Positions 25,266-41,748 of a stretch of DNA of 64,000 nt are shown here, piece after piece. Source of the stretch: Candidatus Woesearchaeota archaeon (GTDB lineage: Archaea > Nanobdellota > Nanobdellia > Pacearchaeales > GW2011-AR1); NCBI GenBank assembly GCA_964344105.1, contig CAYFMD010000002.1:2905-66904 (forward strand), written 5' to 3'. Both the position numbers and the translations under genes were made by a program. Within the stretch, counting starts at the first letter, position 1. Each line of letters begins with the position of its first letter. Below the pieces are notes generated by a model. The model made no database searches. It saw nothing but the letters and a program-made list of their open reading frames with translations, and had not been told where the DNA came from.

Positions 25266-25784
25266 TTAAAAATAATCATCAACTTTCAGCTTAAACTGCA
25301 GCCAGAAAATCCAAAAGAAAAACAATCCTGCATCAACTATTGGCAATACTAAATCAGAATGCTCTCCAAAATAATTAATTAAATTAAATCCTATCTCATA
25401 ATTGGAAAAAGGATAGAATGGCATAAGTGTATCTATAAATATTGTATCTAAACCAATATGGATCAAACTACCTGCAGCAAAAATAAAAAAGATGAAACTA
25501 AAACTCATATGTCTCTGCCTCAATCCCTTATGATTCACATCAAACTTCATCGCCAATAATCCTAAAAACAAAAATATTAATGGGATAAACAAAGAATGAA
25601 AAAACAATCTATCATGGTAATTTAGATTTATCAAATATTCTATATCTGGGAAGACTCCTGCTATAGCAGCTAACAAGATATAATATCTAGGAAATTTCCT
25701 ATTATTCTTAAAAAAATATTCTCTAAATAATTCTATTGCTATAATTGCAACCAAAACATGAGTAGTTGTGTATGGCATTTTCAC
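25266..25784 (-). CDS. membrane-bound metal-dependent hydrolase-like protein (YdjM/DUF457-like)
   Basis: Polytopic protein with conserved His/Asp in loops (HSLFIP, HIGLD). Confidence 0.35.
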   Translation of the reverse strand: MKMPYTTTHVLVAIIAIELFREYFFKNNRKFPRYYILLAAIAGVFPDIEYLINLNYHDRLFFHSLFIPLIFLFLGLLAMKFDVNHKGLRQRHMSFSFIFFIFAAGSLIHIGLDTIFIDTLMPFYPFSNYEIGFNLINYFGEHSDLVLPIVDAGLFFFWIFWLQFKLKVDDYF

Positions 25785-25820
25785 CTCTATAAAAATAGGA
25801 ATAAAAACTCTTACTTAAAT

Positions 25821-26873
25821 CTATCTAGAATTCCACCTAACCTTCGCGCCCTTTTCAGACTTAGTAAAGATGCCTTTCAACCATCCAATCCCATAAGCAA
25901 AATGCGTAGAAACACTAACTCCAAAAACAACCATGCTTGTAAAAATATTTTTCTTCAAACTACCTAGGGCCATTAGAATAAAATAAACAGCAAATCCTGC
26001 AAGAATCAAATTACTATAAACTCCATAATAAATTCCCAAAATCCCTAAGATAAAAACTAACAATCCAATTGTGGGGATCATATAATACAGCTTTTCAAAT
26101 GAAAAATTTTCCTTAGACAGCCAAGCAATATCTCTGCTGTAAATATACATCTGCTTGATATGCTTCCATATAGTATCTCTCCTATGATGATTAACTTTAA
26201 CATCTCCTGCATAAAACACTCTAAGGCCCTTCTCCCATACATCAAAACAATACTTTGAATCTTCTGCAGTTAAGAAATTAGAATCATATTCTATTCCCAA
26301 TTTCCTAGAAATAAAATTGCAACTAGGCAATTCCCAAGAGTCTTGGTTCTCAGCCACTTTATATCTTATAGCTGCTTGGCCAGAAACAAAGAAATTACTC
26401 AAAACATATCCAGAAATATGCTCTGCAAAATTAGCTTCTGGAGGGGTTAAATTAGGCCCTCCTACCAACCCGATTTTCTCATCCTCAAAATACTTCATCG
26501 CGTTCTTCAACCAATCTCTTTTTGGATACGCATCGTCATCTATGAAAGCAAAAAATTGTCCTTCTGCAATCTGCATAGCCTTATTTCTCTTCAGTGCAGG
26601 CTTAACCTTGCCAGTCTCAATTATCCTCAACCTATCATCCTTAGACCTCTTATTGCAATGGTCTGGTAAAACAATAACCTCAAAATCTGGATAATCTAAC
26701 TTCAAACATTCTCTTATGCATTTAATACATTGATCGTTAATAGTAATGCAAGGGATAATTATACTCACTTTTTTGCTCAGAGAATTTTGCATAGATGAGA
26801 TTTCCGAAGGAAATTTAGCAAAATTATCTTTTAGGGGGATTGGAAAAACGGAGTTTTTCAAATGTCTCTTCAT
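25821..26873 (-). CDS. family 2 glycosyltransferase with C-terminal TM anchor
   Basis: VSIIIPCITINDQ and FIDDDAYP. C-terminal hydrophobic helices. Confidence 0.65.
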   Translation of the reverse strand: MKRHLKNSVFPIPLKDNFAKFPSEISSMQNSLSKKVSIIIPCITINDQCIKCIRECLKLDYPDFEVIVLPDHCNKRSKDDRLRIIETGKVKPALKRNKAMQIAEGQFFAFIDDDAYPKRDWLKNAMKYFEDEKIGLVGGPNLTPPEANFAEHISGYVLSNFFVSGQAAIRYKVAENQDSWELPSCNFISRKLGIEYDSNFLTAEDSKYCFDVWEKGLRVFYAGDVKVNHHRRDTIWKHIKQMYIYSRDIAWLSKENFSFEKLYYMIPTIGLLVFILGILGIYYGVYSNLILAGFAVYFILMALGSLKKNIFTSMVVFGVSVSTHFAYGIGWLKGIFTKSEKGAKVRWNSR

Positions 26874-26876
26874 AAA

Positions 26877-27818
26877 TTATAGCCTCTTTTTGAAGCTTAA
26901 ATAGATTCCTATGATTGAAGGAATAATTCCAGCTACAACTAATCCTATTATAGACATAGAGAAAACCTTGGCAGCACTAACTCCAAATAATGCAAACAAA
27001 CTAATCAAAGTAGCCTCTCTAGTTCCTAGCCCATTGATGCTAATTGGTATCATAGTAACCAGAGTCCCTATAGGATAAATAGCAAAATAAACCATCAATG
27101 GAACATCTATACCTAAAGAAAGTCCGATATAATATGCAGTAACATAATTCAACATCCAATTAATAAAATTCAAAGCAAAGAAAAGTACAAAATATCTCTT
27201 TCTAGGAACGTGTTCATAAAATGAATTGAAAGTCATCTTTGCCTTTTCTCTTAACCTAGCCGGAATCAATTTTCTATGGAAAAATTTCAAAATAAAATAA
27301 CTCCTTTCTTTCTTTATGAAAAACAAGATTCCCAAAACAAAAAATAAAAATAGGGCACTAAAGAAAGTCACAGGTAGATCTAGGGTATCCTTAAACTGGT
27401 AAGAGAATAACAATGCAATAAATATTATAGCACTAACATCTAATATCTTATCAATAACAAAATTAAACAATCCCTTCCCTATTTTATCATCTGCATATTC
27501 TTTCAAATATTCTGCTCTTATTACTGAACCAACCTTAGAGGGTGTTACAAATCCATAATAATTTTCAACCAAATTAATCTTGAAAGCTTTCTTGAAAGGA
27601 ACTTTCATATCCTGGAATCTTGCTATAGTGAACCATTTCAAAGTTTCAGAAAACAATCTAATAATTATTACTAAAATAGCAATAGAAATAAAATAAATAT
27701 TAACCCTGCTAACTTCTTTAACCACCTCACTAAAATCAATCTTAGCCAATATGTAAACAAACAAAATTATACCAATTATGGGCAAATATTTTTTCCAATT
27801 TCTTATAAAATAATTCAT
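26877..27818 (-). CDS. polytopic membrane protein (flippase-like / UPF0104-like)
   Basis: About 8 TM helices, sitting between a GT2 and the AglH-like gene. Confidence 0.35.
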   Translation of the reverse strand: MNYFIRNWKKYLPIIGIILFVYILAKIDFSEVVKEVSRVNIYFISIAILVIIIRLFSETLKWFTIARFQDMKVPFKKAFKINLVENYYGFVTPSKVGSVIRAEYLKEYADDKIGKGLFNFVIDKILDVSAIIFIALLFSYQFKDTLDLPVTFFSALFLFFVLGILFFIKKERSYFILKFFHRKLIPARLREKAKMTFNSFYEHVPRKRYFVLFFALNFINWMLNYVTAYYIGLSLGIDVPLMVYFAIYPIGTLVTMIPISINGLGTREATLISLFALFGVSAAKVFSMSIIGLVVAGIIPSIIGIYLSFKKRL

Positions 27819-28825
27819 ATTAATGCCCCCTTAAAGATAAAAAAGGCCAATAAACAAATAACAATCTGTATCAGGAAAATAAAATGAACAACATCCTTTT
27901 CATACACCTTCTTTTTATATTTCTTCAATATTAGTAGTGAAAGATGAGTCATTCCATAAACCTTGCTATAAGGTATTTCCAAACTGCCATCCTCATTAAC
28001 TTTAGCAAAAGAAGGCTTCTTCAACCTACCTCTAACTTTCAAAAAAGTCTCAACAATATATGGAATAAAAACAAAAACCGCTATTCTCTCAAAATTACCC
28101 AATATTGCCATAGCGGCTATCAGTGCTCCAATAGAATATGTCAAAACATCTCCTGGGAAAACTTTAGCAGGAACTTTGTTGTACATATAGAAAACGATCA
28201 ATGCCATAACCATGCACAATCCAACTACTGTCAGCCAAGCACTTCCCGTTAGATATGCTATGAGGCTCAAAAAACTAATTATTATAATCCCTTGGCCGCT
28301 TTCCAACCCATTAAATCCTGCTAGAAAATTGTAAGTAGTTGTAGCCCCTGCAATGCCTATTGGAATTAATAATAACGGATAATAGATTCCTAGATCAACA
28401 ACACCCCAAATAGGAATCTCAATAACCTTTGAACCTGCATTAATAACAACCAATGGAATTGAAGCCATAAATGCCAAAAACAACCTAAACTTTATTGACA
28501 ACCCTCTAGATGTCCATCCAAGAACATCATCCACAAAGCCGATCAAACCAACTAATAATATCAAACTCAATAATGCAAATATTTTTGTAACTTCTCCATT
28601 ACCTCCCAAAAAGAATGTCTTCAAAGCAATATAGCTTAAAACTCCTACAACAAAACTTATCACAACAATTATTCCTCCAGAAGCCGCCACAGCCTTCTTC
28701 TTATCAACCTTATTCATATCTTCCCACAACAATCCAACCTCTCTACACTTTTGTATCCATTTAGGCAATGCATAAAAGCACAAGGCAAAACTCAATAACA
28801 TAGATAGTGCCAATAAATTTTCCAT
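27815..28825 (-). CDS. GT4-family (MraY/WecA/AglH-like) dolichyl-phosphate HexNAc-1-phosphate transferase
   Basis: Polytopic protein with NFLAGFNGLESGQG, an MraY-like NxxNxxDGxDGL-type motif. Confidence 0.65.
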   Translation of the reverse strand: MENLLALSMLLSFALCFYALPKWIQKCREVGLLWEDMNKVDKKKAVAASGGIIVVISFVVGVLSYIALKTFFLGGNGEVTKIFALLSLILLVGLIGFVDDVLGWTSRGLSIKFRLFLAFMASIPLVVINAGSKVIEIPIWGVVDLGIYYPLLLIPIGIAGATTTYNFLAGFNGLESGQGIIIISFLSLIAYLTGSAWLTVVGLCMVMALIVFYMYNKVPAKVFPGDVLTYSIGALIAAMAILGNFERIAVFVFIPYIVETFLKVRGRLKKPSFAKVNEDGSLEIPYSKVYGMTHLSLLILKKYKKKVYEKDVVHFIFLIQIVICLLAFFIFKGALI

Positions 28826-28917
28826 TTTTATATTCTCTTTTAAGTACCAAATTATAAGTGTTTTTAATATTATAGGTTAGAAATATCTTCTAGCACTAAC
28901 AGATACCAAAACCAAAA

Positions 28918-31668
28918 TCATAACCTCCAACTCAAATACTTTCTATAATCCCTATCAACATATTCTTCCTTGAGTTCTTCATTTCCAGTATATTCAACTT
29001 CCCAGATCTTTATAGGTCCTTGAAGTCCTTGATAATAAACAAACTCTGGAAGATCCATTCCTCTAGCTCTCAAATCATCTAATATCAATGAAGATTGTGT
29101 ATGTGCCAACTTGAAGTTAGGGAAATTACCAAATGCATCATCCAATATGTAAACTTGTGCCAACATTCCTCTCAATAATCTTGGACTGACATACAACATA
29201 GCTCCTTGCTCTTGCAATGATGCCCTCCCATTTTCCACATTCAATCTCGGAATAACATATGCAACAGCTTCTATTCCCGAACCATAATCAAACAACTGAC
29301 CCTTAAAGTAGATGTATCTTAAGTTAACATCATATTGCTGACCTTGGTATGTCATTATTGCCCTAGGTTGCTCAAACACACCTGTTGCAGTATTAACAGG
29401 AGTAACTATTGCCCCAACACCTGCATTCCCTGAAGGTAATAATATCTCTCTACCATCTTTCTCAATAATCAAATCCTCATCTAACCCAATTCCTCCTGGA
29501 TATACAAATAGTGTTTGACTAGAAGTCTCTTGCGTCTGACTATCATCTAAAACAAAAGGTCTCATGAATGAATATCTATCAAAATTCTCATCACTTCCAA
29601 TACTAGAGAATGCAGTATATTTCCCAATATCTGTACTATCAATCAAAAAGTAATCTACATCATGATTATACAATAATTCTAAAGCATCATGTTGGTTATC
29701 TCCAGTCAATACATGCCTTCCAACGAGATAATTCCAATACACAATAGCATTGCCTCCATCTACCATGGTAGCTCTATCGCCTATACTTTGCACCCAATAA
29801 CCATAGTCCCACCAATGAGAAAAGACCGCATCTGTAGGTGTATTTTCCCTAACCCAATTCATAGCCCTCTGCCATTGCAGATTATATGAACTAGGAACAA
29901 AATTGTAAGCCTGATAACTAATGCTTTGATAATAAACATAGAATGTATAAAGGCTAGCAATCAAAATCAAAATCACTGCAAGTCCTACCAAAACCTTATT
30001 CACGCTTTCCTTTGACTTAGTATATCTATCTACTACTTCTACAACCAAGAATCCAACAAATATTGTGGATATTGGCCCAAGAACCATAATCAATCTAACA
30101 GCTCCTCTAACAGTAAATAGTGTAACTATAAACAAAGAAAACAACAAAATATATTCATATCTAATCTTCATGAAAGCATCATCTCCAGCTTTCTGATATC
30201 TAAGATATGTTCTCAATAACAGGTAAACAAACAATAGAACAGAAACATAATAGAACGCCTTACTTATCAAATTATCTCCATTAAACACACTGCTTGCAGA
30301 ATATCTGGAATAAACCATTCCAGCCAATAAGAACATAAAGCTAAATGTCAAAATCCAGGCATCTTTATTCTTCAATCTCATCAACATCTTCTTGAACAAG
30401 ACTACAGAACCAATTACAAACAACCAGAACATCAAAGCAATGTTCTTGAAGTAAGGGCCAAAGCTTCCACTCCATTCCTGGAAGTTAGGCTGCCTATTTT
30501 CAGCAACAGTTATATTCCATCTACCAAAGATTGGCTTGAAAATTGTCTGATGAATGACCTTTATCTTATCTATTATAAATTCAGGCCCCAATGCAACAAC
30601 ACTAAGAATAGCAATCACAATTATAGCAACAATAAAACTCTTGATTGGCCTAGGAATATCATATTTATTCAACAAACTCCAATTTCTAATTTTAGTATTC
30701 CAAACCAATCTATCTACAATCAAAACCAAGAACACAAAGACAGCACTTCCAGAAGACAATGAGGTTAGTGTAGAAAATAATTTATATCTTCCTGAAAAGA
30801 AAACCAGCATAGCGATAGAACTAATCAACCAAACCCCATAGGCATAAAAATGTCTTTTCTTAACCTTACCAAGTATGAAAGATATTAAGGCTGCAACAGC
30901 CATTGGAATAAACACATAAATTACTCCTCCCCAAATCAATCCCATTAATCCTGTAGAAATACCTGCCAATAATCCCCAAATCACTGATTTTTTAACAGTC
31001 AAAGATTTCCAAGCTTTCAAAAATAGATATAATGATAAAAACAAAAAGAAAAAGGCAGCACTTTCTTTCTCCGGAATTCCTGCAATAGTTCTTGATAAAA
31101 ATACAGGGGTAACTATCATAAAAAACGTAGCTATTAAAGACATAATATTGGCCTTCAAAACACCTTTCTTAGTTTTCCTAACAAACAATTCTCTAACAAA
31201 CAAAAAGAAACTAATTATAGTAAATCCAAACATAATTACTGGAAATATAACTCCTGCAAACTCAATAGGGTAATCTCCAAACCAATTAGCTATTTTATGA
31301 GTATATGCAATCATATACGGGAGCAACTGACTTTCAATGGAATTATCAAACCCCACCGGAACATTCCTCATCATATCAATCGCAGGCAAACTCCCCTCAT
31401 TTACTATAGTCTCCGCACTACGCAAGAACAACCAGGGATCTAAATCTGGACCCAATGTCCATGTCTGTGTAGTAATATCATAAAGCCCAGGATTACCCGA
31501 CTGATGCTCAGTCATTGGAAGAGCACGTATGTACATTCCCAAAATAACCGCAACTATCAACAAAACAACAACCCATCCCTGTCCCTTAGTAAGAAACTTA
31601 AATACCTTCTCTTTCCTTTCTTTCAATATATCACTACTACCTCTCAACTCACCAATTTCATCCATCAA
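28918..31668 (-). CDS. aglB: archaeal oligosaccharyltransferase AglB (STT3 homolog)
   Basis: 916 aa, N-terminal 13-TM domain plus a large C-terminal domain carrying SHWWDYGYWVQS (WWDYG motif). Confidence 0.9.
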   Translation of the reverse strand: MMDEIGELRGSSDILKERKEKVFKFLTKGQGWVVVLLIVAVILGMYIRALPMTEHQSGNPGLYDITTQTWTLGPDLDPWLFLRSAETIVNEGSLPAIDMMRNVPVGFDNSIESQLLPYMIAYTHKIANWFGDYPIEFAGVIFPVIMFGFTIISFFLFVRELFVRKTKKGVLKANIMSLIATFFMIVTPVFLSRTIAGIPEKESAAFFFLFLSLYLFLKAWKSLTVKKSVIWGLLAGISTGLMGLIWGGVIYVFIPMAVAALISFILGKVKKRHFYAYGVWLISSIAMLVFFSGRYKLFSTLTSLSSGSAVFVFLVLIVDRLVWNTKIRNWSLLNKYDIPRPIKSFIVAIIVIAILSVVALGPEFIIDKIKVIHQTIFKPIFGRWNITVAENRQPNFQEWSGSFGPYFKNIALMFWLFVIGSVVLFKKMLMRLKNKDAWILTFSFMFLLAGMVYSRYSASSVFNGDNLISKAFYYVSVLLFVYLLLRTYLRYQKAGDDAFMKIRYEYILLFSLFIVTLFTVRGAVRLIMVLGPISTIFVGFLVVEVVDRYTKSKESVNKVLVGLAVILILIASLYTFYVYYQSISYQAYNFVPSSYNLQWQRAMNWVRENTPTDAVFSHWWDYGYWVQSIGDRATMVDGGNAIVYWNYLVGRHVLTGDNQHDALELLYNHDVDYFLIDSTDIGKYTAFSSIGSDENFDRYSFMRPFVLDDSQTQETSSQTLFVYPGGIGLDEDLIIEKDGREILLPSGNAGVGAIVTPVNTATGVFEQPRAIMTYQGQQYDVNLRYIYFKGQLFDYGSGIEAVAYVIPRLNVENGRASLQEQGAMLYVSPRLLRGMLAQVYILDDAFGNFPNFKLAHTQSSLILDDLRARGMDLPEFVYYQGLQGPIKIWEVEYTGNEELKEEYVDRDYRKYLSWRL

Positions 31669-31706
31669 AATACCTAATCTAGGATGTTTTTAAAGTTATA
31701 GCAAAA

Positions 31707-31719
31707 CAAATCTTTATAT
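31707..31719 (+). promoter_or_regulatory. archaeal TATA-box-like element (CTTTATATAAG) upstream of cysteine-rich gene 31742, in the divergent aglB intergenic region
   Basis: TTTATATA about 28 nt upstream of the ATG, consistent with a leaderless archaeal transcript. Confidence 0.35.
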
Positions 31720-31741
31720 AAGAAAAGTACCTAGGAATTGC

Positions 31742-33262
31742 ATGAAAAAGAGGTCGAAGAAGAAATCTTCAAATAATTTATTTTCAAATAGAAATCTGAT
31801 TATAGCATTAGTAATCTTAGTAATAATAATTTTAATCCCAAAGGGAGGCATAACTGGAAACGTAACCAATGATGCAGAATCTGATGGAGGATTTATTGAC
31901 ACTTTAATAGATTTTTTTACAGGAGGCGAATCTTTTGATGATTTATTCTCAGCATTTTTAGTAGATGAAGAAGATGAGGAATTCCATCTATGCTGTGATA
32001 ATAGAGACGAGTGTACAAGACCAGAGTTAGACAATGCGATAAAAACTTGCTTAAGAAATCAAGAGGGTGGACAAAAATACCATGAGGATTGCGGGGATAG
32101 CGGGATTTGTTTAATAGATTGTTTAGAAGACAGCCATTGTGGAAATGGGGAATTTTGCTGTAATAAAGATGCATTCGGAGAAAATGGCTGTACAGGATTC
32201 CAAGCAGGAAGATGTTTTGCAGATCCAGATGCACCTACAGATGAGGGCAATAATGATGAATCAGAAAATACTGATGATGGAAAAAGATGTTGTGTAGCCG
32301 TTTATACTGAAAGACAGGACTTCCCTTGCGATATTATAACTGACGAACAAACTTGTCTAAACGCAGAAGCTGGAAATGTTGCTTCAGATACTTGTGGATG
32401 GGATGAAAACACATTTACATGCTTTAACAATGAAGCTAAACTATGTGAAAATTCAATGCCTCAAGATTGTGACCAAATAATATGGCACCCTACAGATGGA
32501 AGTCTTTCGGGAGTAAGCCCTACTGACAGCGTGGACATATCTGAACTAGATATTCCAGATGACTGTGGATCTGATATTCACATAGAATATTGTGGACATG
32601 GGGTAACTGATGCTTGTGAAGAATACATTGAATTGGGATTTAATATAGCAGCAATGACTGAGGGCACATGTAATGCAGTTACGCTAGATTCAACAGCTTG
32701 CTACCTATTCTCTGATATTGATGCAGCAATACAAGCAGCAAAACAAGAATGCTTAGCAACAGGAACAAATTGTGAAATTTCAATAACTGCAAACCAATGT
32801 CAAGGGTTCATATGGCCTGATAAATGTACTGAGGTTGAAGGGACTAGTACCGAGGTAACTCTTTGTATAAAAGACGGAGAAGTAACTGTTGACTACAATC
32901 CTTGTCATGCAGTTGGTATAAGTTGCTACAACCCAAGTAGTAGTTGGCAATGCGAGATAACTGATGATAATGGAGATATTAAACTAGTCGAGCAATTCTG
33001 TTGTGGCCAGTTCCAAGGATTTGGAAATTGGCACTATCCAGGCCTGCCCTGCCCGGGCTATGAAGAAAACTCTTGCTTGGAAGATCAACTTTGCACAGAA
33101 ATACAGGAACAAAGTGGAGACACAAGAACCTGTAATGTTCAAGAGAATGGCCAAATAGTTGAGAAGGACCAAATCTGCTGCAAGGAACAAAGGGCTCCTT
33201 CCCCTGGAGAGCCTCTAGAATATGATTATGTCTGGAGGAATCTCGGTGAGTGCTTTGGATAG
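31742..33262 (+). CDS. cysteine-rich secreted/surface-anchored protein, family member 1
   Basis: Leader MKKRSKKK..SNRNLIIALVILVIIILIPKGGITGNVTN, then an acidic domain with about 1 Cys per 8-9 residues. TATA-like TTTATATA about 28 nt upstream. Confidence 0.6.
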   Translation: MKKRSKKKSSNNLFSNRNLIIALVILVIIILIPKGGITGNVTNDAESDGGFIDTLIDFFTGGESFDDLFSAFLVDEEDEEFHLCCDNRDECTRPELDNAIKTCLRNQEGGQKYHEDCGDSGICLIDCLEDSHCGNGEFCCNKDAFGENGCTGFQAGRCFADPDAPTDEGNNDESENTDDGKRCCVAVYTERQDFPCDIITDEQTCLNAEAGNVASDTCGWDENTFTCFNNEAKLCENSMPQDCDQIIWHPTDGSLSGVSPTDSVDISELDIPDDCGSDIHIEYCGHGVTDACEEYIELGFNIAAMTEGTCNAVTLDSTACYLFSDIDAAIQAAKQECLATGTNCEISITANQCQGFIWPDKCTEVEGTSTEVTLCIKDGEVTVDYNPCHAVGISCYNPSSSWQCEITDDNGDIKLVEQFCCGQFQGFGNWHYPGLPCPGYEENSCLEDQLCTEIQEQSGDTRTCNVQENGQIVEKDQICCKEQRAPSPGEPLEYDYVWRNLGECFG

Positions 33263-33299
33263 TCTTAAATACCCCAAAAACATACTAAAATAACAAAAG

Positions 33300-34694
33300 A
33301 TGGTGAAGAAAAAAACTTCTAAAAATAATGTATTATCAAACAAAAACTTACTTATAGCATTGGGATTAGTAATCCTAGCTATAATTCTTTACAACATATC
33401 TGGAATAGAAAATGAATCTGGATTGGGGCAAGCATCTCCTGGATTCAATACTTTTTTCTCAGCTTTCGTAGGTGCGCCTGATGCGGGAGATATGGAAACT
33501 CCTGGGAAGGATGATAGCGTTTCTTGTTCAGGAGGGAGATATTGCCCAAGAGGAACCAAGTGTGTAAAGTCAACAAATAAATGTGTTAAATATTGTGATC
33601 CTGCGCAATTTTATTGTAGCCCTTCAGTAGACGATCCTAATAAAGACGGAATTTGTGACAAGCAAGAAAGAGTTTGTGTTTCTTGTTTTATTAATGAAGA
33701 TGGAGAGAGCATAGGGTGTGATGCAAATCCAAACGGGGAAGTTTGCATAGGCACTCCTGGAAAGCGTGAATGTGTGCAATGTAGTTCAGATGATCATTGC
33801 CCTGTGAGAAATGGAAACCAAGATCATGATTTCTGTGTAGATAATAAATGTGTTGAATGCACCAAAAGAGAGCATTGTGGAGATAAAGAAGTCTGTACAG
33901 AAAACAAGTGTGTCCCAATAACAAGCTGCAGAGGTGATGATGGATTTGGAGATATTGATTTATGTAAGGAGCCTTATGACGTTTGTTATGTTTCAGGTTA
34001 TTCTGGAGGAAGCGACGGTGATCCAAACGATCCAAACGATCCAAACCCTATTTGTGTAGCCTGCGCAAATAATCCTAATGTCCCTCCCAATGGGGTGATT
34101 GTGGGATGCGACGATCCTAGAAAGCCTGCATGTGATTTTGGCCCCGCACTACGCAGATGTGTTGAGTGTACGGGAGATAGTCACTGTCCGAATGATAAAC
34201 CTAAGTGTATGGATTATGAGTGTGTTGAAAGATGTGTAGAAAATAGTGATTGTCCAGAAGGATATTGGTGTGCGAATAATCCTAGAGAGTGTGTTGTACC
34301 TAATTATGAATGTGACCTCGCTAATGGTGATCTTGATTGCCCAAGAGGTTACACTTGCCTCGATCCGGATATTACTGGAGCTAGAGATCCTTATTGTGTG
34401 CCTCTACCAAAAGAGAACGGAGATTTCATAGACTGTAATCCAAATGACCCTGATGCCTGTCCTGCAAATACCAAATGTGGGCCAGTTGGAAATATTGGTA
34501 ATAAATGTAAGCCAAAGGAGTGCACGAATTCTATAGAATGTTCAGACCAATATATTTGTAAGAAGTTTCTTCAAGGAGGCACTCTTAGTGAAAGGGGAAC
34601 TTGCTTACCTCCAGTACCTGCAACAGGAGAATGCACTGGACATAGGGACTGTCCTTTTGGAGCTCAATGTATAAACGACAAATGTGCTGTTTAA
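33300..34694 (+). CDS. cysteine-rich secreted protein with CVECxxDxHCP repeats, family member 2
   Basis: Leader MVKKKTSKNNVLSNKNLLIALGLVILAIIL, about 52 Cys, repeated KCV(E/Q)C(T/S)xxxHCP modules, DPNDPNDPN encoded by a 9-bp tandem repeat. Confidence 0.6.
   Translation: MVKKKTSKNNVLSNKNLLIALGLVILAIILYNISGIENESGLGQASPGFNTFFSAFVGAPDAGDMETPGKDDSVSCSGGRYCPRGTKCVKSTNKCVKYCDPAQFYCSPSVDDPNKDGICDKQERVCVSCFINEDGESIGCDANPNGEVCIGTPGKRECVQCSSDDHCPVRNGNQDHDFCVDNKCVECTKREHCGDKEVCTENKCVPITSCRGDDGFGDIDLCKEPYDVCYVSGYSGGSDGDPNDPNDPNPICVACANNPNVPPNGVIVGCDDPRKPACDFGPALRRCVECTGDSHCPNDKPKCMDYECVERCVENSDCPEGYWCANNPRECVVPNYECDLANGDLDCPRGYTCLDPDITGARDPYCVPLPKENGDFIDCNPNDPDACPANTKCGPVGNIGNKCKPKECTNSIECSDQYICKKFLQGGTLSERGTCLPPVPATGECTGHRDCPFGAQCINDKCAV
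34019..34045 (+). repeat. 9-bp tandem repeat x3 (gatccaaac) encoding DPNDPNDPN
   Basis: Direct reading: gatccaaacgatccaaacgatccaaac. Confidence 0.8.
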
Positions 34695-34835
34695 CTACCC
34701 AAAAACCCTATCCATCTCATCCAATAACTCACTAGCACTACCGTGCTCTTGAAAATCATTCATTCCACATAACTTACACTCACTAATATCTTCAGAATGA
34801 TCTGTACCACAATTCTTACATTTATATGTAACCAT
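34695..34835 (-). CDS. small C4 zinc-ribbon protein
   Basis: MVTYKCKNCGTDHSEDISECKLCGMNDF (CxxC...CxxC). Start placed at internal Met to avoid overlap; the ORF track runs to 34943. Confidence 0.4.
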   Translation of the reverse strand: MVTYKCKNCGTDHSEDISECKLCGMNDFQEHGSASELLDEMDRVFG

Positions 34836-34840
34836 CTTTC

Positions 34841-35701
34841 TTAAAACAATGCAGGAGTTATGAAAACTTCTATCAATGCAGCAACAAATAAAATCAAAAC
34901 AGCAGCAATAACTAGGTTCAAAGAATCCTGTAAAATGGTCCAAAACTTGTCAGACCTCAAATCATGTTTAATTATAGCAATACTTACTATTCCTCCTGCC
35001 AATGCCCCAATAAAATAACTCCCTATCTCTGGAACCCCATGTATCATATACCTTCCTAGTGCCAGAGGCAAATTACTCAAACTTCCCTTAGAAAAGATTC
35101 CTATTGCTGCCGCTATAACGCTAGCATTCCAAGCCAAGATAAATATAGCTCCCGCACCAAATATCAGGGAGAACAGCAAGGTAAATATCAAAACGTAGAT
35201 ATTATTTATGAAAATATTAACAATCTTATCTTTAGCAGATAAAAATCCAGTTGTGCTAGGATCATGGCCTAATCCATAATCAGAAATACACTGCTCAAAG
35301 TTTGTAGGCCTATTAATCAAACAATACGTCTCTATCTGCGCTCTAAAGCTCTGATTCCCATCCTCAAATACAATATACCAGAAACTAAAGGCAACAATAA
35401 ATCCTAAAAACAAAAACATAAGGTAAGTCAAGGCCTTTCCATGTTCTTCTAACAATCGCCAAAAGCCAGTGCTAGTCAAATCCTTCTCCTCTTCATACTT
35501 TATAGCAAAATACAAGAAAGGAATAGTAAACATAACACAAAAAGTAACTATCAGCATACCTGTATATTGTGACAATACTGGATCTCCAGAAAATATCCAT
35601 TGGGTCAAAAACAAAGACACTGTAGCATAGAAAGCTCCAATAAAAAACATCTCCCACGGCCTCTTCTCAGCCTTAACCGGGTTAATTAACATCTCAAACA
35701 C
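34841..35701 (-). CDS. SpoIIM/DUF95-family polytopic membrane protein
   Basis: N-terminal MFEMLINPVKAEKRPWEM, multiple TM helices, MIHGVPEIGSYFIGALAG segment typical of DUF95. Confidence 0.5.
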   Translation of the reverse strand: MFEMLINPVKAEKRPWEMFFIGAFYATVSLFLTQWIFSGDPVLSQYTGMLIVTFCVMFTIPFLYFAIKYEEEKDLTSTGFWRLLEEHGKALTYLMFLFLGFIVAFSFWYIVFEDGNQSFRAQIETYCLINRPTNFEQCISDYGLGHDPSTTGFLSAKDKIVNIFINNIYVLIFTLLFSLIFGAGAIFILAWNASVIAAAIGIFSKGSLSNLPLALGRYMIHGVPEIGSYFIGALAGGIVSIAIIKHDLRSDKFWTILQDSLNLVIAAVLILFVAALIEVFITPALF

Positions 35702-36713
35702 TTTCTTTACCTCCTTTAGTTCTCCTCTTTTGAATAATCGCTAACCTATTTCTTAACACAGGAAGCTCCTGATCTATCTTATGCAATCGGTCTTTATATT
35801 TCTTTACCCTAATGTTATATACAAGTCCTGAGATAGCATTTTTCTTATACCTGTCTATTTGCGTCTTCTTTATCAAACTAATCAACACATTCCTCTCTTG
35901 CTTCATCTTAGCTATCTTTTTCTTCAATATCTTAATACTAACTTTCTTACTTCCATAATATGTGCCTCCTATAATTAGAACAATCAAAACTAGAAGTAGT
36001 ATCCAATATCTCTGAACGAAATTCTTAGCCCCATCTCTAACTCCTGAAATAAAACTACTTCCCTCTCTATCTGATTCTATAGAATCTCTCAACCTATCTA
36101 ATAATTCCTGGGTATCCTGATATCTTTCCTCTCTAAACGCTATATCAACTTCTTCTACAAGATTAACCGTCAACTCACTCGGTTCTTTTAATGACTCAAA
36201 ATCCTCATTTCTCACCTTAATCATATCTTCTAATAACAATGACTTAGTTTCTCTTTCCTTTATCTGATCAGTTAGTTCAATAACCCCCTCATAATATATC
36301 TCTTCCCAATTTACCAATCTAAGTGCCGCTCTGGCTCTAGCCTTTTCCTCCAAATTAGGGCTATTGCTTCTTAGGATGTCTGCAAATTTAGCTCTCTCAA
36401 ATACCCGTCTAGCCTCCAATAAAAGATCTTCAACAAACAACGTATTAAACCCATGCTCTTTCATTATAGATATAGATCTATTAGCCTCCTCTATAGCTTC
36501 TAAGGCCATTTCTTCTGTAACTATAACCTTTTCATCACTATCATTAATTATTGCAAAACCAGTAAACAATCCTCTTCTCTCAATCCCCAAGCTTTCGTCT
36601 ATCAAATCATTCATCTCCGAGTTAGCAATATTAAAAGCTGTATAACTAACAAAACTAACAACTATGAAAATTCCTAAAACCCACAAAAACTTATCACTAA
36701 ATCTCATCTGCAT
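35694..36713 (-). CDS. bitopic membrane protein: extracellular helical domain, TM, basic cytoplasmic coiled coil
   Basis: N-terminal signal anchor, second TM (YWILLLVLIVLIIGG), K/R-rich C-terminal tail. Confidence 0.45.
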   Translation of the reverse strand: MQMRFSDKFLWVLGIFIVVSFVSYTAFNIANSEMNDLIDESLGIERRGLFTGFAIINDSDEKVIVTEEMALEAIEEANRSISIMKEHGFNTLFVEDLLLEARRVFERAKFADILRSNSPNLEEKARARAALRLVNWEEIYYEGVIELTDQIKERETKSLLLEDMIKVRNEDFESLKEPSELTVNLVEEVDIAFREERYQDTQELLDRLRDSIESDREGSSFISGVRDGAKNFVQRYWILLLVLIVLIIGGTYYGSKKVSIKILKKKIAKMKQERNVLISLIKKTQIDRYKKNAISGLVYNIRVKKYKDRLHKIDQELPVLRNRLAIIQKRRTKGGKESV

Positions 36714-39183
36714 CCTCCTTATATTTTAACTCAATCCACTTTCCTTTATAGTCTTGATCCTTCGATTGTTCTTTCAATCTTTCTATTATCTCGTTATCTA
36801 TCATCATAACCCCTCTTTCATCTTTCTTCATTTTCTTAGCAAGCTTAGTAGCTTTATCCTTGCTCTTAGCAAACAAACTCTTAGCGCTATTGCCTAATTT
36901 ATTAAGCTTAGAACCTGCTCTTTCAGACAAAGATGGCTTAGAATCTGGTAATTGATCTCCAAGAGCTTCTTTATTCTTTTTGACAATTTTCTTCTTTTCT
37001 AGTCTTTTTTCAACCCACTTCTTCTCGGGAATATCTTCTATTACCTTTCCTCTATTCTTATTCTTCGACAAACTTAATGTAATCCTGTCATCCTCTATCT
37101 CTGCAAATCTCTCATTCATCTCTTTGAATTCAGCATCATATTCTTTCTGAGAGATATTATGTTTAACAAAATAATCTGTCTGAAGAGTTTTGACTTGATG
37201 TTCTAATTGCTTCTTCTCAATTTCAAGATCATTAATTATTTCAGCCGGAGCCAGTAATTTTATTCTTTTGTTTCTCAATTCAACTCTAGCCTTTCTTAAC
37301 TTAGCTAACTTATCTCTATGGTTATCCATAGCACTCTCAAATTCCTCTGAACTCATCTTCCCGCTATAATATTTAGCCTGAGTTTTTCTAAATAGCCCCC
37401 TAATATTAGCCTCTTCCTTAATACCATCCTCTATCTTCCTACTTATGCTAGTCTTTTGGTATTGCTTAACGCCCATAATACTCAAGAATGTAAATATTAT
37501 TACACCTATCACAACAAAATACCAGTAAAGATAAAGGAACAAACCAACATTCCCTCTTCTCTCTAACAACAACATAACTTGGGCTGATTTAGCCCTTTCT
37601 TCCGCAAGATCATAATCTCCTCTTTCAAAAGCTACCTGGGCCAGATCAACAACTTCTTCTATAGAACTGTCAGCAAATATAGCTTTTCCAGAAATTAAAG
37701 CTCTAACAGGAACCATCTTTCCATCTTCATCTCTAACTTCCTTGGCCACATTCCCTGTAATAAGATTGGTCTTCTTAGGATCTTCCAAAGCCAGTTTAAG
37801 ATTATCAATCAGTTCTTTTACTTCAAATGCTTTATCTTTAATTTTAATTATCCTTTTTGCAATATCTAAAGCAAATTTATTATCTTCCCCAAGGTTTTCA
37901 TTAATCTCTTTAATTAACTCCTCTACAATTTCTACATTGAATAAAGCCTCCTTCATTTCTTCCAGAGCCCTCTTCGCCTTATCAACAAAATCAGTTATTT
38001 CCTCATCACCAACCTCTTCAATAATCAGCTTAATATTTTGAGTTTCTTTATAGGATGTCTCAATTCCCTTAGTAAGTTTGATTCCAGTCACATCTGCTCT
38101 CAAGGTATGCACTTCACGCTCTTCCTTATAGGCAGGAATTTTTATCTTAACATTAAAATATTTTTTATCTTTTGAATCTATTGAATCAATAGTCTTAGGA
38201 TTTATTTCAATATACTGAGCAAAAAAACCACTAATTTCTAATTTTAGATCTTTTAGAATCGTATCTGTAAATTTATTTTCGACTTCAATTTCAAAACTAT
38301 CCTCTTGGCCCCTAACTATTCTAATCTCTTTTGAATAAATTGTAGCTGAGCCTCCCCCACTACTACCTCCGCCTCCTCCGCCACCACTTTCACTACCTCC
38401 TGATTCGACTACTGTGGCTGCAGGACCTGATCCTACATCAACCTCATTTACAGTAACATTCTTGCTGCCGACTTCTATTAGATTTGAGGTTAGGTTTGAA
38501 TCAGTATTGTTTAATCCAGTAACATTAGCATATAGGGTTACCGTTCCCGGAGTAGCCGTAGAATTAATATCTACAGTTAATGTAAAATTATTTTGTTCGT
38601 TTACACTTAATGTGCCAACTGACCTACTTAGTGTTCCTGTAGTGTTAATCCATCCATTAGGCAAGCTAAAATTCATTTCAACATTCTTTGCATTGCCTTG
38701 TCCCTTATTAGTAACCGAGACTATTAATTGAATTCCTGTATTATTTTGTGAAACAATGCTAGGTGCAGTTTCAAAACTTGTGATCAAAAATGGGTTTGCC
38801 GACGTTGCAACAATGTTAGCAGTAAATGTGGCAGAAGCAGGAACACTGGCAACATTGGCATCTGTGTCATTAACAGAGATATTAAATGTTATTAATGTAG
38901 AGCCTTCAGTACTAGGAGTTGTCACATTAACCTGCAAAGTTCTACTATCATTGCCATCAATGTTAGTGTTATTCAAATAAAAAGGAAAAGATGTATTGAA
39001 TGCTATATCTCCTTCAAAATCACTAGTTATATTCAATACGGTTATATTTTTGCTAGTGTGGGTATCATTTATTGTAAGGTTCCCAATAGTTTTATTTACA
39101 TTTAATGCTGTTGCAATATTACCAAAAGATTTCTGCAGATAGTTCCAAACAGTACCAATCAGAAAACTTCTTGTAGAACTCAT
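36697..39183 (-). CDS. large surface protein: sequon-dense extracellular beta-rich domain, Gly-rich linker, TM helix, cytoplasmic K/E coiled coil
   Basis: About 20 N-x-S/T sequons in the first 250 aa. CARDB-like SVTNKGQGNAKNVEMNFSLPNGW, then SGGSESGGGGGGGSSGGGS, TM GLFLYLYWYFVVIGVIIF and a coiled-coil tail. Confidence 0.55.
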   Translation of the reverse strand: MSSTRSFLIGTVWNYLQKSFGNIATALNVNKTIGNLTINDTHTSKNITVLNITSDFEGDIAFNTSFPFYLNNTNIDGNDSRTLQVNVTTPSTEGSTLITFNISVNDTDANVASVPASATFTANIVATSANPFLITSFETAPSIVSQNNTGIQLIVSVTNKGQGNAKNVEMNFSLPNGWINTTGTLSRSVGTLSVNEQNNFTLTVDINSTATPGTVTLYANVTGLNNTDSNLTSNLIEVGSKNVTVNEVDVGSGPAATVVESGGSESGGGGGGGSSGGGSATIYSKEIRIVRGQEDSFEIEVENKFTDTILKDLKLEISGFFAQYIEINPKTIDSIDSKDKKYFNVKIKIPAYKEEREVHTLRADVTGIKLTKGIETSYKETQNIKLIIEEVGDEEITDFVDKAKRALEEMKEALFNVEIVEELIKEINENLGEDNKFALDIAKRIIKIKDKAFEVKELIDNLKLALEDPKKTNLITGNVAKEVRDEDGKMVPVRALISGKAIFADSSIEEVVDLAQVAFERGDYDLAEERAKSAQVMLLLERRGNVGLFLYLYWYFVVIGVIIFTFLSIMGVKQYQKTSISRKIEDGIKEEANIRGLFRKTQAKYYSGKMSSEEFESAMDNHRDKLAKLRKARVELRNKRIKLLAPAEIINDLEIEKKQLEHQVKTLQTDYFVKHNISQKEYDAEFKEMNERFAEIEDDRITLSLSKNKNRGKVIEDIPEKKWVEKRLEKKKIVKKNKEALGDQLPDSKPSLSERAGSKLNKLGNSAKSLFAKSKDKATKLAKKMKKDERGVMMIDNEIIERLKEQSKDQDYKGKWIELKYKEDADEI

Positions 39184-39185
39184 AT

Positions 39186-39887
39186 TTAAGTTATCTTCGT
39201 CTTCTCCAGAAATTTAAAAAGTTGACTAATATACATTCTGTAAGAATCATCCTTTTTCGTAAAGGCACTAGCAATGGCCGTAAGAGAGTCTATTGCTATA
39301 AAGTCTGGATCCTGAAAATCCTTCGGCAAAAAAATGGGATTGATGTCTATAAGTAGTTCTCCCTTTTGTTTAGCCATCATAGCATCAACATTTCTCATTA
39401 TATCAAAAGGATCTGATCTAACTATTCTTAAATTTCCCTTCTTTATCAGTTTCTTTGCAGGCCATCCAAAACCTTCCATATGTTCAATCAATCTCTCTTC
39501 AGACTCCTCCAGGGTCATAATCAAACATTTCTTTCCTTTAGTAGCATGGTGAACCAAAGACTGTAAGCAAGTTATGGTCTTACCACTCCCTGCCCCTCCA
39601 GATATCAATAGGGAACTACCTTTTGGAACCCCCTTAAACAACAATTTATCTAGGCCCTCAATCCCCATCTTTACCGAATTTGCAGAAATAATACTCTTTT
39701 CTTTGATTTTTAACTTTGTCAGGGGGTTTCTTTGTCTCTTAATGCTCCCATTCAACTTATTAGATATAGACTTAAAATCTATCTGAGAGCTATTTTTAAC
39801 AGGAACCTTTCTCGTAACTATCCTATCAGTAGAAACATTTTTTGCCACTCCCTGATCCTTATTAACCAAAACCTCTTTTCTAACCAT
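39186..39887 (-). CDS. KaiC/RecA-superfamily ATPase (single domain) with Lys-rich N-terminal extension
   Basis: GIEGLDKLLFKGVPKGSSLLISGGAGSGKTITCLQ (Walker A) and Walker B-like FIAIDSL. Confidence 0.6.
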   Translation of the reverse strand: MVRKEVLVNKDQGVAKNVSTDRIVTRKVPVKNSSQIDFKSISNKLNGSIKRQRNPLTKLKIKEKSIISANSVKMGIEGLDKLLFKGVPKGSSLLISGGAGSGKTITCLQSLVHHATKGKKCLIMTLEESEERLIEHMEGFGWPAKKLIKKGNLRIVRSDPFDIMRNVDAMMAKQKGELLIDINPIFLPKDFQDPDFIAIDSLTAIASAFTKKDDSYRMYISQLFKFLEKTKIT

Positions 39888-39942: not shown

Positions 39943-40461
39943 CTATTTGCCTTCAGCAAGATCTTCTATTGAAGGCTCTTTGTGATCATGATTGTGATCG
40001 CAACCACAATTTTCATCCCCACAACTATGCGCTTCCTCTCCATGAGCAGCACCTTCTCCACCCTTTGCATGAGCCTCCATCTGAGCTTTCTGGAATTCCA
40101 TGATCATCTTATTCATTTCGTTTTGCAATTCATCTAATCTTCCCATTATCTGATTCTTAGCATCCATCAACTTATCACTTTCCTCATCAACTATCTTCTT
40201 AGTATCACTAACAGATTTCTTAACAAAATTTCCCTTTCCAACTTCAACAATCAAATTCTTATCTCTAATATCTACAGGCAGGAAAATCCTCTTACCCAAA
40301 TTAGCCATTATCTCTTTATTATCATTACTCTCAATCTCTTCCAAACTTGCCTTAAGGTCATTCATCTCAGCAACATTCTGATCAACAACTTTCAGTTGTT
40401 CATTCAACTGATTAGTCTCCTGTTCCATCATCTGAATTCTCATAATTGCTTCTTGATCCAT
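39943..40461 (-). CDS. pfdA: prefoldin alpha subunit with His/Cys-rich C-terminal tail
   Basis: Coiled coil, then beta-hairpin region IFLPVDIRDKNLIVEVGKGNFVKK, then coiled coil. Tail HGEEAHSCGDENCGCDHNHDHKE. Confidence 0.6.
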   Translation of the reverse strand: MDQEAIMRIQMMEQETNQLNEQLKVVDQNVAEMNDLKASLEEIESNDNKEIMANLGKRIFLPVDIRDKNLIVEVGKGNFVKKSVSDTKKIVDEESDKLMDAKNQIMGRLDELQNEMNKMIMEFQKAQMEAHAKGGEGAAHGEEAHSCGDENCGCDHNHDHKEPSIEDLAEGK

Positions 40462-40477
40462 TTTCTATTAAAAATAT

Positions 40478-40717
40478 TTAGTATAGCCCAGTCTCACCAG
40501 CTGCAGCCCTAGCCATTCTCTCATAACCAGACATTGGCTGTCCAGGACCATTGCTCTTTGACATGTGTGGCTCAGAGCTTCCTACAATAGAACTTCCAGT
40601 ACCAGTATCTGTAGCAGTCTCCAATGATCCTCCAGCTACAGGAAGGCTTCTAGCCCTTCTCTGATCGGCTTCCCTTCTTGCAGCATAACTAAATCCTTCT
40701 GTCATAACATCACCCAA
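40478..40717 (-). CDS. hypothetical low-complexity Gly/Ser/Ala-rich ORF in a GC-rich segment (coding status uncertain)
   Basis: Roughly 47 percent GC against a local background nearer 33 percent. The product is low complexity. Confidence 0.2.
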   Translation of the reverse strand: MGDVMTEGFSYAARREADQRRARSLPVAGGSLETATDTGTGSSIVGSSEPHMSKSNGPGQPMSGYERMARAAAGETGLY

Positions 40718-40823: not shown

Positions 40824-41117
40824 ATGAAATGTTCTAAATGCAAGAGTAAAAGAATAGTTAAACAGGGTCTGAGAAAAAATCAATCAGGAAATAAACAAAA
40901 ATATCAGTGTTTGAATTGCAAGAATTGGTTTGTTGAAAATGATGGATTCATTAGGATGAGACATGATCCAACAATAATTACCAAAGCGATTCATATGCAC
41001 AAAGATGGTATGTCTTTCTATAGTGTTGCCAATCATCTCTGGCAGTATGATGGTGTGAGGGTGACGCCAATGACTGTTTGTAATTGGACCGTAAAATACG
41101 GTGCTTTTTTAAAATAG
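40824..41117 (+). pseudogene. transposase N-terminal zinc-finger/HTH part (frame 0), ends at TAG just after a T6A4 tract
   Basis: ORF ends ...KYGAFLK-stop at 41115-41117. The T6A4 run lies at 41105-41114. Confidence 0.55.
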
Positions 41118-41748
41118 GATAAATGAGCTGGTTGAACCACAGCTCAAAGGAAGACAACATCTAGATGAAAAGTATGTCAAGCTAAGAGGTAAGCATTACT
41201 ACGATTTGAATTGTATAGATAACAAGAATAAGTACATAACAGCTCATTTGTTCGTCGCTGAGAGAACAAATGAGAAGTGTATAGAATTTTTATCTGAGAT
41301 AAAAAGAAATTGCTACGGCCAGATTCTGTATAGGTATTATATTGAGAAGCATAAAAAAGTAGACGATAGGCAACTTATAACTTTTGTTTGCGATGGATTT
41401 GAAAATTACAGAAATGCGTTCAATAAATTGTTTTATAGAGTTGCTAAATTGCAGTTCGGTGTTCCAATCAAACTGCAGAGATTTGGAGTGAAGCATAACA
41501 ACAATCCAATAGAGAGATATAATGGAAAGTTGAAAGATAGGATCAAGGTTTTGAGAGGAGGATTTGGAAGTTTTGAAAGAGCTAGTGCTTTTATGAATCT
41601 TCAAAGAGTTGTCCATAATTTTGTGAACCCTCATCAAGGTCTGCAGGGAAAGACACCTGCAGAAATGGCTGGGATAAAGTTGAATTTAGGAAGAATGAAA
41701 TTGCTAAACCTGATTAAGTATGTGGCAGAAAACTTACCTGACGATTAG
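41113..41748 (+). pseudogene. transposase DDE catalytic part (+1 frame), open from 41113
   Basis: Frame-1 reading NRINELVEPQLKGRQHLDEKYVKLRGKHYY... continues into the tracked ORF 41206..41748. Confidence 0.55.

Follow-up and report, generated by a model that had tools for sequence, protein, structure and literature searches.

Archaeal KaiC ATPases and giant surface proteins

KaiC-family ATPases have been proposed to serve as signalling hubs in archaea (Makarova, Galperin & Koonin 2017, as relayed in PMC5847659), and DUF835 has been treated as an inactivated KaiC-like domain (PMC5847659). Here, a run of five genes encoding a KaiC-type ATPase, a large surface protein, a small partner protein, a SpoIIM/DUF95 protein and a zinc ribbon was analysed in a stretch of 64,000 nucleotides (nt) of contig CAYFMD010000002.1 (positions 2,905 to 66,904; Candidatus Woesearchaeota archaeon, assembly GCA_964344105.1), which is referred to below as the window; coordinates are collected in Table 1. 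The five genes very probably represent two unrelated units, namely a damaged copy of a gene trio (ATPase, giant surface protein and partner) and a SpoIIM/zinc-ribbon pair. The apparent five-gene "machine" of a preliminary description would then be a deletion scar next to an unrelated housekeeping pair, which is a corrective result for this window.

The full-length orthologues of the window ATPase resemble the proposed hub proteins in being single-domain KaiC ATPases with intact Walker A and B motifs and catalytic glutamates. The relatives are also flanked by REC, HAMP-HisKA-HATPase, PAS/dCache and DUF835/DUF7504-type genes, like the hub neighbourhoods outlined in the source cited above. In contrast to these hubs, the recurrent partner is a giant, C-terminally anchored surface protein accompanied by a small paralogue of its stalk, transmembrane (TM) helix and tail, and the window copy has a truncated ATPase and no signalling neighbours. 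The archaellum protein ArlH (FlaH) is of the same fold family, and it too is cytoplasmic and KaiC-like and operates together with a membrane complex. However, the window ATPase (45.5 bits) and its full-length orthologues (41-57 bits) remained far below the ArlH cutoff of 215 bits (NCBIfam NF052589), and, unlike in archaellum loci, no T2SSE/ArlI-type ATPase or other archaellum annotation was present among the Pfam-annotated neighbours. Thus, of the family assignments that had been suggested for profile searches, KaiC (PF06745) and DUF95 (PF01944) were recovered, and ArlH, at 45 bits, was not. The tandem domains of circadian KaiC (TIGR02655/NF006799) were not found either: the window ATPase has a single KaiC domain, and the circadian models gave 48-140 bits against cutoffs of 408-546. 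Alignments of the full-length orthologues to KaiC-domain models run from end to end, and their scores stay below every curated NCBIfam cutoff, ArlH included. A PADLOC search with the five proteins gave weak P-loop matches for the ATPase (E of at least 4e-4) and none for the other four.

Very large surface proteins, for example the SPEARE proteins of Nanohaloarchaeum antarcticus, have reportedly been put forward as mediators of contact between DPANN archaea and their hosts. The giant proteins considered here are similar to them in being large, repeat-rich extracellular proteins of variable length from small-genome, presumably episymbiotic archaea, and differ in their LamG, immunoglobulin-like (Ig) and NEW3 domains combined with a conserved stalk-TM-tail region, in the dedicated small paralogue, and in the KaiC/two-component context. 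No account of the trio pairing was found among the papers searched on DPANN, giant surface proteins and KaiC. While KaiC ATPases in signalling neighbourhoods are known, their pairing with a giant surface protein and its paralogue appears to be undescribed. For the way in which DPANN archaea recognise and hold their hosts, the trio offers a concrete candidate that is open to study in cultivated systems.

Truncation of the ATPase and surface-protein genes

The ATPase open reading frame (ORF) of 233 amino acids (aa) matched the KaiC profile (PF06745, E 4.4e-29) at positions 1-157 of 231 only. It retains a basic N-terminal extension, Walker A (GGAGSGKT, residues 97-104) and Walker B (IAIDS), and residues 97-104, the catalytic pair E127/E128 and D200 all fall in invariant alignment columns. 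The RecA core is incomplete: its last ~85 residues, with the strands following Walker B (profile positions 158-231), are missing. Twelve aligned homologues (299-398 aa) run on for ~85 strongly conserved residues past the "...FLEKTKIT" end of the window protein, continuing as SFLITETEQVPKIFSQTGVEEFLADGVIVLY..RENAIEILKLRGAAHQKKIVAMQIT..VYPEQEVFS, and this continuation holds the remaining RecA-core strands. The identity of the window protein to the aligned full-length orthologues is 51-64%, and the best-scoring homologues, the window's own sequence excepted, are nearly all ~300-410 aa in length. The missing C-terminal part gave no tblastn match anywhere in the window. Judging from these alignments, the first gene is a 5' fragment (233 codons) of a gene for a single-domain KaiC-family ATPase. 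The domains named in the preliminary description were all found (KaiC here; SpoIIM, E 1.4e-17, and CxxC...CxxC in the small ORF, see below), the ATPase being partial.

For the second ORF (828 aa), homologues of 1,035-3,057 aa gave alignments over their last ~700-800 residues only, and the homology starts at residue 3-5 of the ORF. Its closest homologues (1,317-1,446 aa) carry an N-terminal Laminin_G_3 domain. The ORF is 51% identical to residues 1060-1777 of the protein encoded in locus L088, the nearest intact relative, and its start is equivalent to residue ~960 of that protein or to residue ~560 of two other homologues (P0122 and P0123). A hydrophobic N-terminal signal sequence was found in 21 of the 22 full-length homologues, the exception being cut by a contig end; the maximum of N-terminal hydrophobicity is 0.50 in the 828 aa ORF versus 2.1-3.25 in the homologues. 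The signal sequence and variable repeat region that precede the stalk, TM helix and tail in the trio are thus absent, and the missing N-terminal part had no tblastn match within the window. Because there is no N-terminal signal sequence, the sequon-rich part of this protein cannot be assumed to be extracellular, as it had been supposed to be at first. A Shine-Dalgarno motif 5-10 nt before the ATG was not found for this ORF, in contrast to the next two genes, which have one. A NEW3 domain was identified by Pfam, and the AlphaFold2 model (pLDDT 68) contains three beta-sandwich domains (one of them NEW3/CARDB-like), a Gly-rich linker, a helical stalk, one TM helix at approximately residues 545-570 and a basic helical cytoplasmic tail. 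What is left in the second gene can be regarded as the 3' part (828 codons) of a gene for a giant surface protein.

The third ORF, the partner, aligns over its full length with 23 homologues (alignment A2, n=24, none with a Pfam domain) and is therefore intact. In the protein of 339 aa, a membrane anchor at the N-terminus, an ectodomain made up entirely of helices and a TM helix are predicted, together with a helical hairpin on the cytoplasmic side that bears the conserved motif KKTQxERFKxNxISGLVYNIRxKKYxxRLxxIxxELPVL; the AlphaFold2 model (pLDDT 86.5) is helical throughout. With two hydrophobic segments, the anchor and the TM helix, it departs from the single TM helix that had been ascribed to each of the two membrane proteins. 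The family includes 1,834 cluster representatives (50% identity) at E<=1e-3 and has no Pfam model, and its members adjoin giant homologues in DPANN loci. A sequence search of the PDB returned nothing significant, the top match being the FadA adhesin (E=0.028). BLASTP between the 828 and 339 aa proteins reached only E=0.015, and their relationship took a profile-profile comparison: hhalign of the partner-family profile against the C-terminal profile of the giant proteins gave a probability of 99.6% (E 8.9e-25). The 339 aa protein is accordingly a paralogue of the helical stalk, TM helix and cytoplasmic tail of the giant protein.

At the boundary of the first two genes, homology in the KaiC frame ("FLEKTKIT*") extends down to ~39189-39198, and homology in the giant frame ("SGEDEDNLNMSSTR"), which is a different frame, reaches up to ~39204-39210; the two abut within ~20 nt inside the purine-rich GGAGAAGACGAAGATAAC. 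Interior residues ~550-575 of P0122 and P0123 (..FSVEDNDNLNMSSTRNFEIGTVWD..) align to the junction, where the window reads *ISGEDEDNLNMSSTRSFLIGTVWN, and therefore the ATG at 39183 corresponds to a conserved internal methionine of the giant protein. SFLI, with which the 828 aa ORF begins, was considered as a leftover of KaiC; this was rejected, as the alignment places these residues inside the giant protein. By all these alignments the junction looks to be a deletion scar, the deletion possibly having been made at a microhomology. Judged against the nearest intact relative, ~4 kb were removed: ~85 codons from the 3' end of the ATPase gene, the DNA between the two genes, and ~560-960 codons from the 5' end of the giant gene, those for the signal peptide among them. 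Two to three codons beyond the junction the ATPase frame meets a stop, and the giant remnant reopens 2 nt later at the conserved internal methionine.

A similar junction could be produced by a chimeric assembly of a genome that in reality has full-length genes, especially as the junction lies in a low-complexity purine-rich stretch and metagenome assemblies are the sole source of the sequence. This explanation is, however, extremely improbable. The same pair of 233 and 828 aa ORFs was found in four places from three runs (ERR2281801, ERR2281802, ERR2281803), in ENA and Logan assemblies, and the identity of the pair among these assemblies makes a chimera unlikely; moreover, the relatives carry different, independent truncations at the same locus. 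The window copy has been broken by a deletion, and both ORFs are truncated. Their products are most likely non-functional or residually expressed, since RecA strands, the signal peptide and the Shine-Dalgarno motif of the 828 aa ORF are missing and the module has been lost in relatives. Both ORFs should be annotated as gene fragments.

Some observations weigh against this interpretation. Both truncated ORFs have remained open, over 233 and 828 codons, in a genome of 35% GC, with just 2 nt between stop and restart, so that a degree of expression and function is conceivable; with the nearest relative at ~80% nucleotide identity, none is close enough for dating the deletion or measuring selection, synonymous sites being saturated at the 70-80% nucleotide identity of the nearest relatives. 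Another explanation could therefore be that the truncated genes were retained as working neo-genes: the 828 aa protein might be inserted via its single TM helix, or the 339 aa paralogue, which is intact, might escort it; the KaiC stub might act as a nucleotide-binding or regulatory fragment; and the stop-restart overlap might give coupled translation. This would agree with the length and intactness of both ORFs, with the short spacer and the conserved internal methionine, and with the intact partner gene that overlaps the remnant by 17 nt. Also, locus L088 has an intact giant and partner despite a KaiC without P-loop, so the pair may work without KaiC. Nevertheless, by what is established for membrane-protein biogenesis, a stretch of ~540 N-terminal residues that lacks a signal peptide would not be expected to be translocated; the 828 aa ATG lacks the Shine-Dalgarno motif that the next two genes possess; a RecA domain is unlikely to fold once the strands that follow Walker B are gone; and the whole module has been lost in close relatives. 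Retention as neo-genes is thus improbable, and the two ORFs are treated below as gene fragments.

The intact trio in DPANN relatives

GTDB species genomes were scanned with the KaiC alignment, which gave 80 loci, mostly of Woese-, Pace-, Nano- and Aenigmatarchaeota. Of the 67 DPANN loci, counted at species level, that have an orthologous KaiC, 36 also have a gene of the giant/339 aa family (13/22 among loci with at least 6 kb on each side), at a median gap of 236 nt from KaiC and within 300 nt in 19 of the 36. The ATPase is therefore not a generic, unlinked KaiC/RadA paralogue, a possibility that had been raised for it. No other gene family occurred in more than seven loci, save one large single-linkage cluster in which KaiC genes and signalling-type neighbours were chained together. 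The neighbourhood conservation expected for all five genes holds for the first three, which are co-conserved in DPANN archaea, and not for the other two: SpoIIM and zinc-ribbon homologues were found in none of the 80 KaiC-anchored loci.

In the relatives, the trio consists of the single-domain KaiC ATPase, a surface protein of 1,000-3,100 aa with a signal peptide, and the ~300 aa paralogue. The intact giant combines the signal peptide with Ig, LamG and NEW3 repeats, a C-terminal helical stalk, one TM helix and a basic helical cytoplasmic tail. The window shares with these loci a KaiC orthologue adjoining the giant and partner genes, and a partner homologous to the stalk-TM-tail region. As side features of the KaiC orthologues, an N-terminal motif ID..IA.EIK.EL..EQRKP was observed (alignment A1, P0032/P0034, L085 21146-22606, L086 8511-9749), and some orthologues are fused to an N-terminal winged helix-turn-helix (wHTH) domain (HTH_24) or to hemerythrin.

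Signalling genes accompany KaiC in 38 of the 67 loci and encode REC, HAMP-HisKA-HATPase, dCache and PAS proteins; the same set includes DUF835/DUF7504-like proteins of ~175 aa, hemerythrin and small proteins of the wHTH type. The inactivated-KaiC-like protein had no match in NCBIfam. Signalling neighbours are likewise present in contexts reached from the giant/partner side. Thus, locus L086 has the order REC, REC, two DUF7504/DUF7090-like genes, histidine kinase (HK), PAS, KaiC, giant and partner; in L171 the giant and partner are followed ~3.5 kb on by DUF7504 and KaiC; and in L170 an HK and REC precede giant pieces and a partner, with no KaiC within 9 kb. The trio is conserved and stands in a signalling context. 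In the window, tblastn with REC, inactivated-KaiC, HK, dCache and PAS queries gave no match, and the copy studied here has no signalling neighbourhood.

Within the clade of the window, the trio sits in a variable slot between prefoldin and SpoIIM, and several states of this slot were found. Loci L088 and L089, the nearest by the partner protein (53% identity), encode an intact giant of 1,777 aa and a partner; in L088 (2001-3593) only KaiC residues 105-299 remain, without a P-loop, behind a ParA/MinD-like gene that replaces the 5' end of KaiC. Loci L090 and L091, with 94% SpoIIM identity and ~80% nucleotide identity to the window, contain KaiC crumbs of 35 and 58 aa and a P-type cation ATPase gene in place of the giant (L090 2729-6948), and of their partner only a TM-plus-tail fragment of 101 aa remains as an ORF. 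In L094 and many others nothing lies between prefoldin and SpoIIM, and most relatives are without the module. The window keeps the N-terminal part of KaiC and L088 and L090 keep C-terminal parts; therefore, the lesions differ between genomes. The window instance is a decaying remnant, and the trio, truncated in some of these reduced genomes and fragmentary or absent in others, exemplifies how they continue to lose genes.

Possible role of the trio

The giant protein and the small paralogue might pair via their homologous stalk-TM-tail regions to form a surface adhesin or receptor. The KaiC ATPase, together with the neighbouring HK, REC and inactivated-KaiC proteins, would couple the cytoplasmic tails to a signalling network, and the outcome might be contact sensing or control of the adhesin. 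Gene context and predicted topology tentatively suggest, at somewhat less than even chances, that the intact trio is such a signalling-coupled adhesin. A more specific proposal, slightly more tentative still, is that it is a device of episymbiotic DPANN archaea for host-contact sensing or adhesion control, in which the giant and its paralogue make up a transmembrane receptor with tails that are read or controlled by KaiC and two-component proteins; if so, the window would record the loss of the trio in one lineage. One point speaks against the proposal: some giant/partner pairs have HK/REC neighbours with no KaiC within 9 kb.

The KaiC ATPase could alternatively be an assembly or secretion motor, rather than a signalling protein, that exports or anchors the giant as an S-layer-like coat. 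The ATPase gene is often directly beside the giant gene (within 300 nt in 19/36 loci); the giant is sequon-rich, has Ig-like repeats and is C-terminally anchored, like archaeal S-layer proteins; and AglB lies nearby in this clade. However, the giants have ordinary signal peptides, suggesting Sec export, and the KaiC family is known for regulators and scaffolds (ArlH, GvpD, clock KaiC) and not for translocases. Some giant/partner pairs have no KaiC nearby, and the intact pair of L088 lies beside a P-loop-less KaiC. The commonest other neighbours are HK, REC, PAS, dCache and inactivated-KaiC genes, which point to signalling and turn against the assembly or division motor envisaged at first. The motor is, on balance, unlikely, and the signalling-coupled adhesin is preferred for the intact trio.

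Linkage of SpoIIM and the zinc ribbon to AglB

Archaeal SpoIIM homologues (arCOG01994) are near-universal and mostly stand-alone, and their role is unknown, membrane remodelling being a possibility (PMC5898192). The fourth gene of the window is a clear member of this family (PF01944, 64.5 bits against a cutoff of 26.9, E 1.4e-17, profile positions 10-163 of 163). In contrast to the stand-alone arrangement, in this DPANN clade SpoIIM is consistently followed by a zinc ribbon of 46-50 aa and the AglB oligosaccharyltransferase. A metagenome scan anchored on SpoIIM yielded 80 loci with 94-41% identity, the shared backbone of which runs from SecY through prefoldin and the variable slot to SpoIIM, the zinc ribbon and STT3/AglB. 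STT3 follows SpoIIM on the same strand in 37 metagenome loci, and a small CxxC..CxxC ORF lies between the two in 24 of these, as it also does in L088. The zinc ribbon is 46-50 aa long across the clade, with STT3 directly downstream in the relatives (synteny of L088 and L090-L115). NCBIfam gave no match for SpoIIM or the zinc ribbon.

A module gene (KaiC, giant or partner) was present upstream in only 4 of the 55 SpoIIM loci with enough upstream sequence, and three of the four hold fragments, the fourth having a distant KaiC-family gene. SpoIIM here does not accompany the KaiC trio in any conserved way. It is linked with the zinc ribbon and AglB in an arrangement that is conserved and seemingly undescribed, suggesting that the fourth and fifth genes belong with AglB and the downstream N-glycosylation genes and not with the trio. 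There are hints in this arrangement that archaeal SpoIIM homologues may act near N-glycosylation. The locus is composite, and its second unit would abut the first through local gene order alone.

The five minus-strand genes and their junctions were as given in the preliminary description, the junctions being, from the first gene to the fifth, a 2-nt spacer, overlaps of 17 and 8 nt, and a 5-nt spacer. This tight spacing is not above chance and carries little weight, because coding density is 96% in the window and gaps are <=17 nt in 40 of its 61 same-strand neighbour pairs (median 1 nt); four such junctions in succession would arise there by chance with a frequency of ~19%.

The five genes had been interpreted as one intact, translationally coupled, envelope-spanning machine, made up of an ATPase motor, two bitopic proteins, SpoIIM and a zinc ribbon, for surface-structure assembly, attachment or division. 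Their common strand and junctions of <=17 nt, the wide co-conservation of three of the five, and the recurrence of the order giant, partner, SpoIIM, zinc ribbon in the nearest relative, L088, are compatible with it. Such a machine is nevertheless very improbable: one deletion has truncated both the ATPase, whose RecA core is short by about a third, and the large protein, from which the signal peptide and no fewer than 560 residues are gone; none of the 80 KaiC-anchored loci contains SpoIIM or the zinc ribbon, which in ~50 SpoIIM-anchored loci occur without the module; and the spacing is the norm of the genome. For the division into two unrelated units, a point in its disfavour is that L088 keeps the order from the giant and partner through SpoIIM and the zinc ribbon to AglB, with the same 8-nt overlap of partner and SpoIIM, which leaves room for a lineage-specific functional link between these two genes.

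Other features of the region

Table 1. Features of the window described in the text (positions within the 64,000 nt)
Feature	Position	Strand	Length	Remarks
KaiC-type ATPase ORF	39186..39887	minus	233 aa	predicted 5' gene fragment
Deletion junction (putative scar)	39189..39210	minus		purine-rich GGAGAAGACGAAGATAAC, read in both frames
Large surface-protein ORF	36697..39183	minus	828 aa	predicted 3' gene remnant
Stalk-TM-tail region of the remnant	37264..38019	minus	residues 389-640	paralogous to the 339 aa protein (profile comparison)
Small partner ORF	35694..36713	minus	339 aa	
SpoIIM/DUF95 ORF (arCOG01994-type)	34841..35701	minus	286 aa	polytopic membrane protein, PF01944
Zinc-ribbon ORF (C4)	34695..34835	minus	46 aa	ATG at 34835; CKNC...CKLCG (motif read from sequence), acidic C-terminal helix
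Window-specific insertion	31706..34694	plus	~3 kb	between zinc ribbon and STT3; two Cys-rich secreted-protein genes
First insertion gene	31742-33262	plus		weak DUF7107/EB/Dickkopf-like matches
Second insertion gene	33300-34694	plus		weak DUF7107/EB/Dickkopf-like matches
STT3/AglB oligosaccharyltransferase	28918..31668	minus		Pfam STT3 on identical contig
ORF beyond STT3	27815-28825			
ORF beyond STT3	26877-27818			
ORF beyond STT3	25821-26873			
Prefoldin alpha	39943-40461	minus		His/Cys/Asp-rich C-terminal tail
ORF of high GC	40478-40717	minus	79 aa	~47% GC
IS6/IS240-like transposase	40824-41748	plus	97 + 180 aa	split; zinc-finger ORF and DDE ORF

The zinc ribbon and STT3 are separated in the window by an insertion; blastn alignments against L090, L088, L093 and L095 join position 34696 directly to 31705. 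The stop of the second insertion gene abuts that of the zinc ribbon (34694/34695). Beyond STT3, the region 25266-35701 continues with the three ORFs listed in Table 1, and the L088 string runs on past AglB into genes of GT4, LPG_synthase_TM (flippase-like) and GT2 proteins.

On the other side of the trio, prefoldin alpha carries an unusual C-terminal tail (..AHGEEAHSCGDENCGCDHNHDHKEPS..), which is not covered by the prefoldin matches of most relatives. Next to it lies a segment of higher GC content than the genome (35%) that has no Rfam match; its 79 aa ORF has no Pfam match, and L088 does not share this ORF. Scans for Rfam families and tRNAs in the vicinity of the locus found nothing. The DDE part of the split transposase scored below the Pfam cutoffs, and blastn against L088 aligned nothing to the element; a recent and possibly defective insertion is probable.

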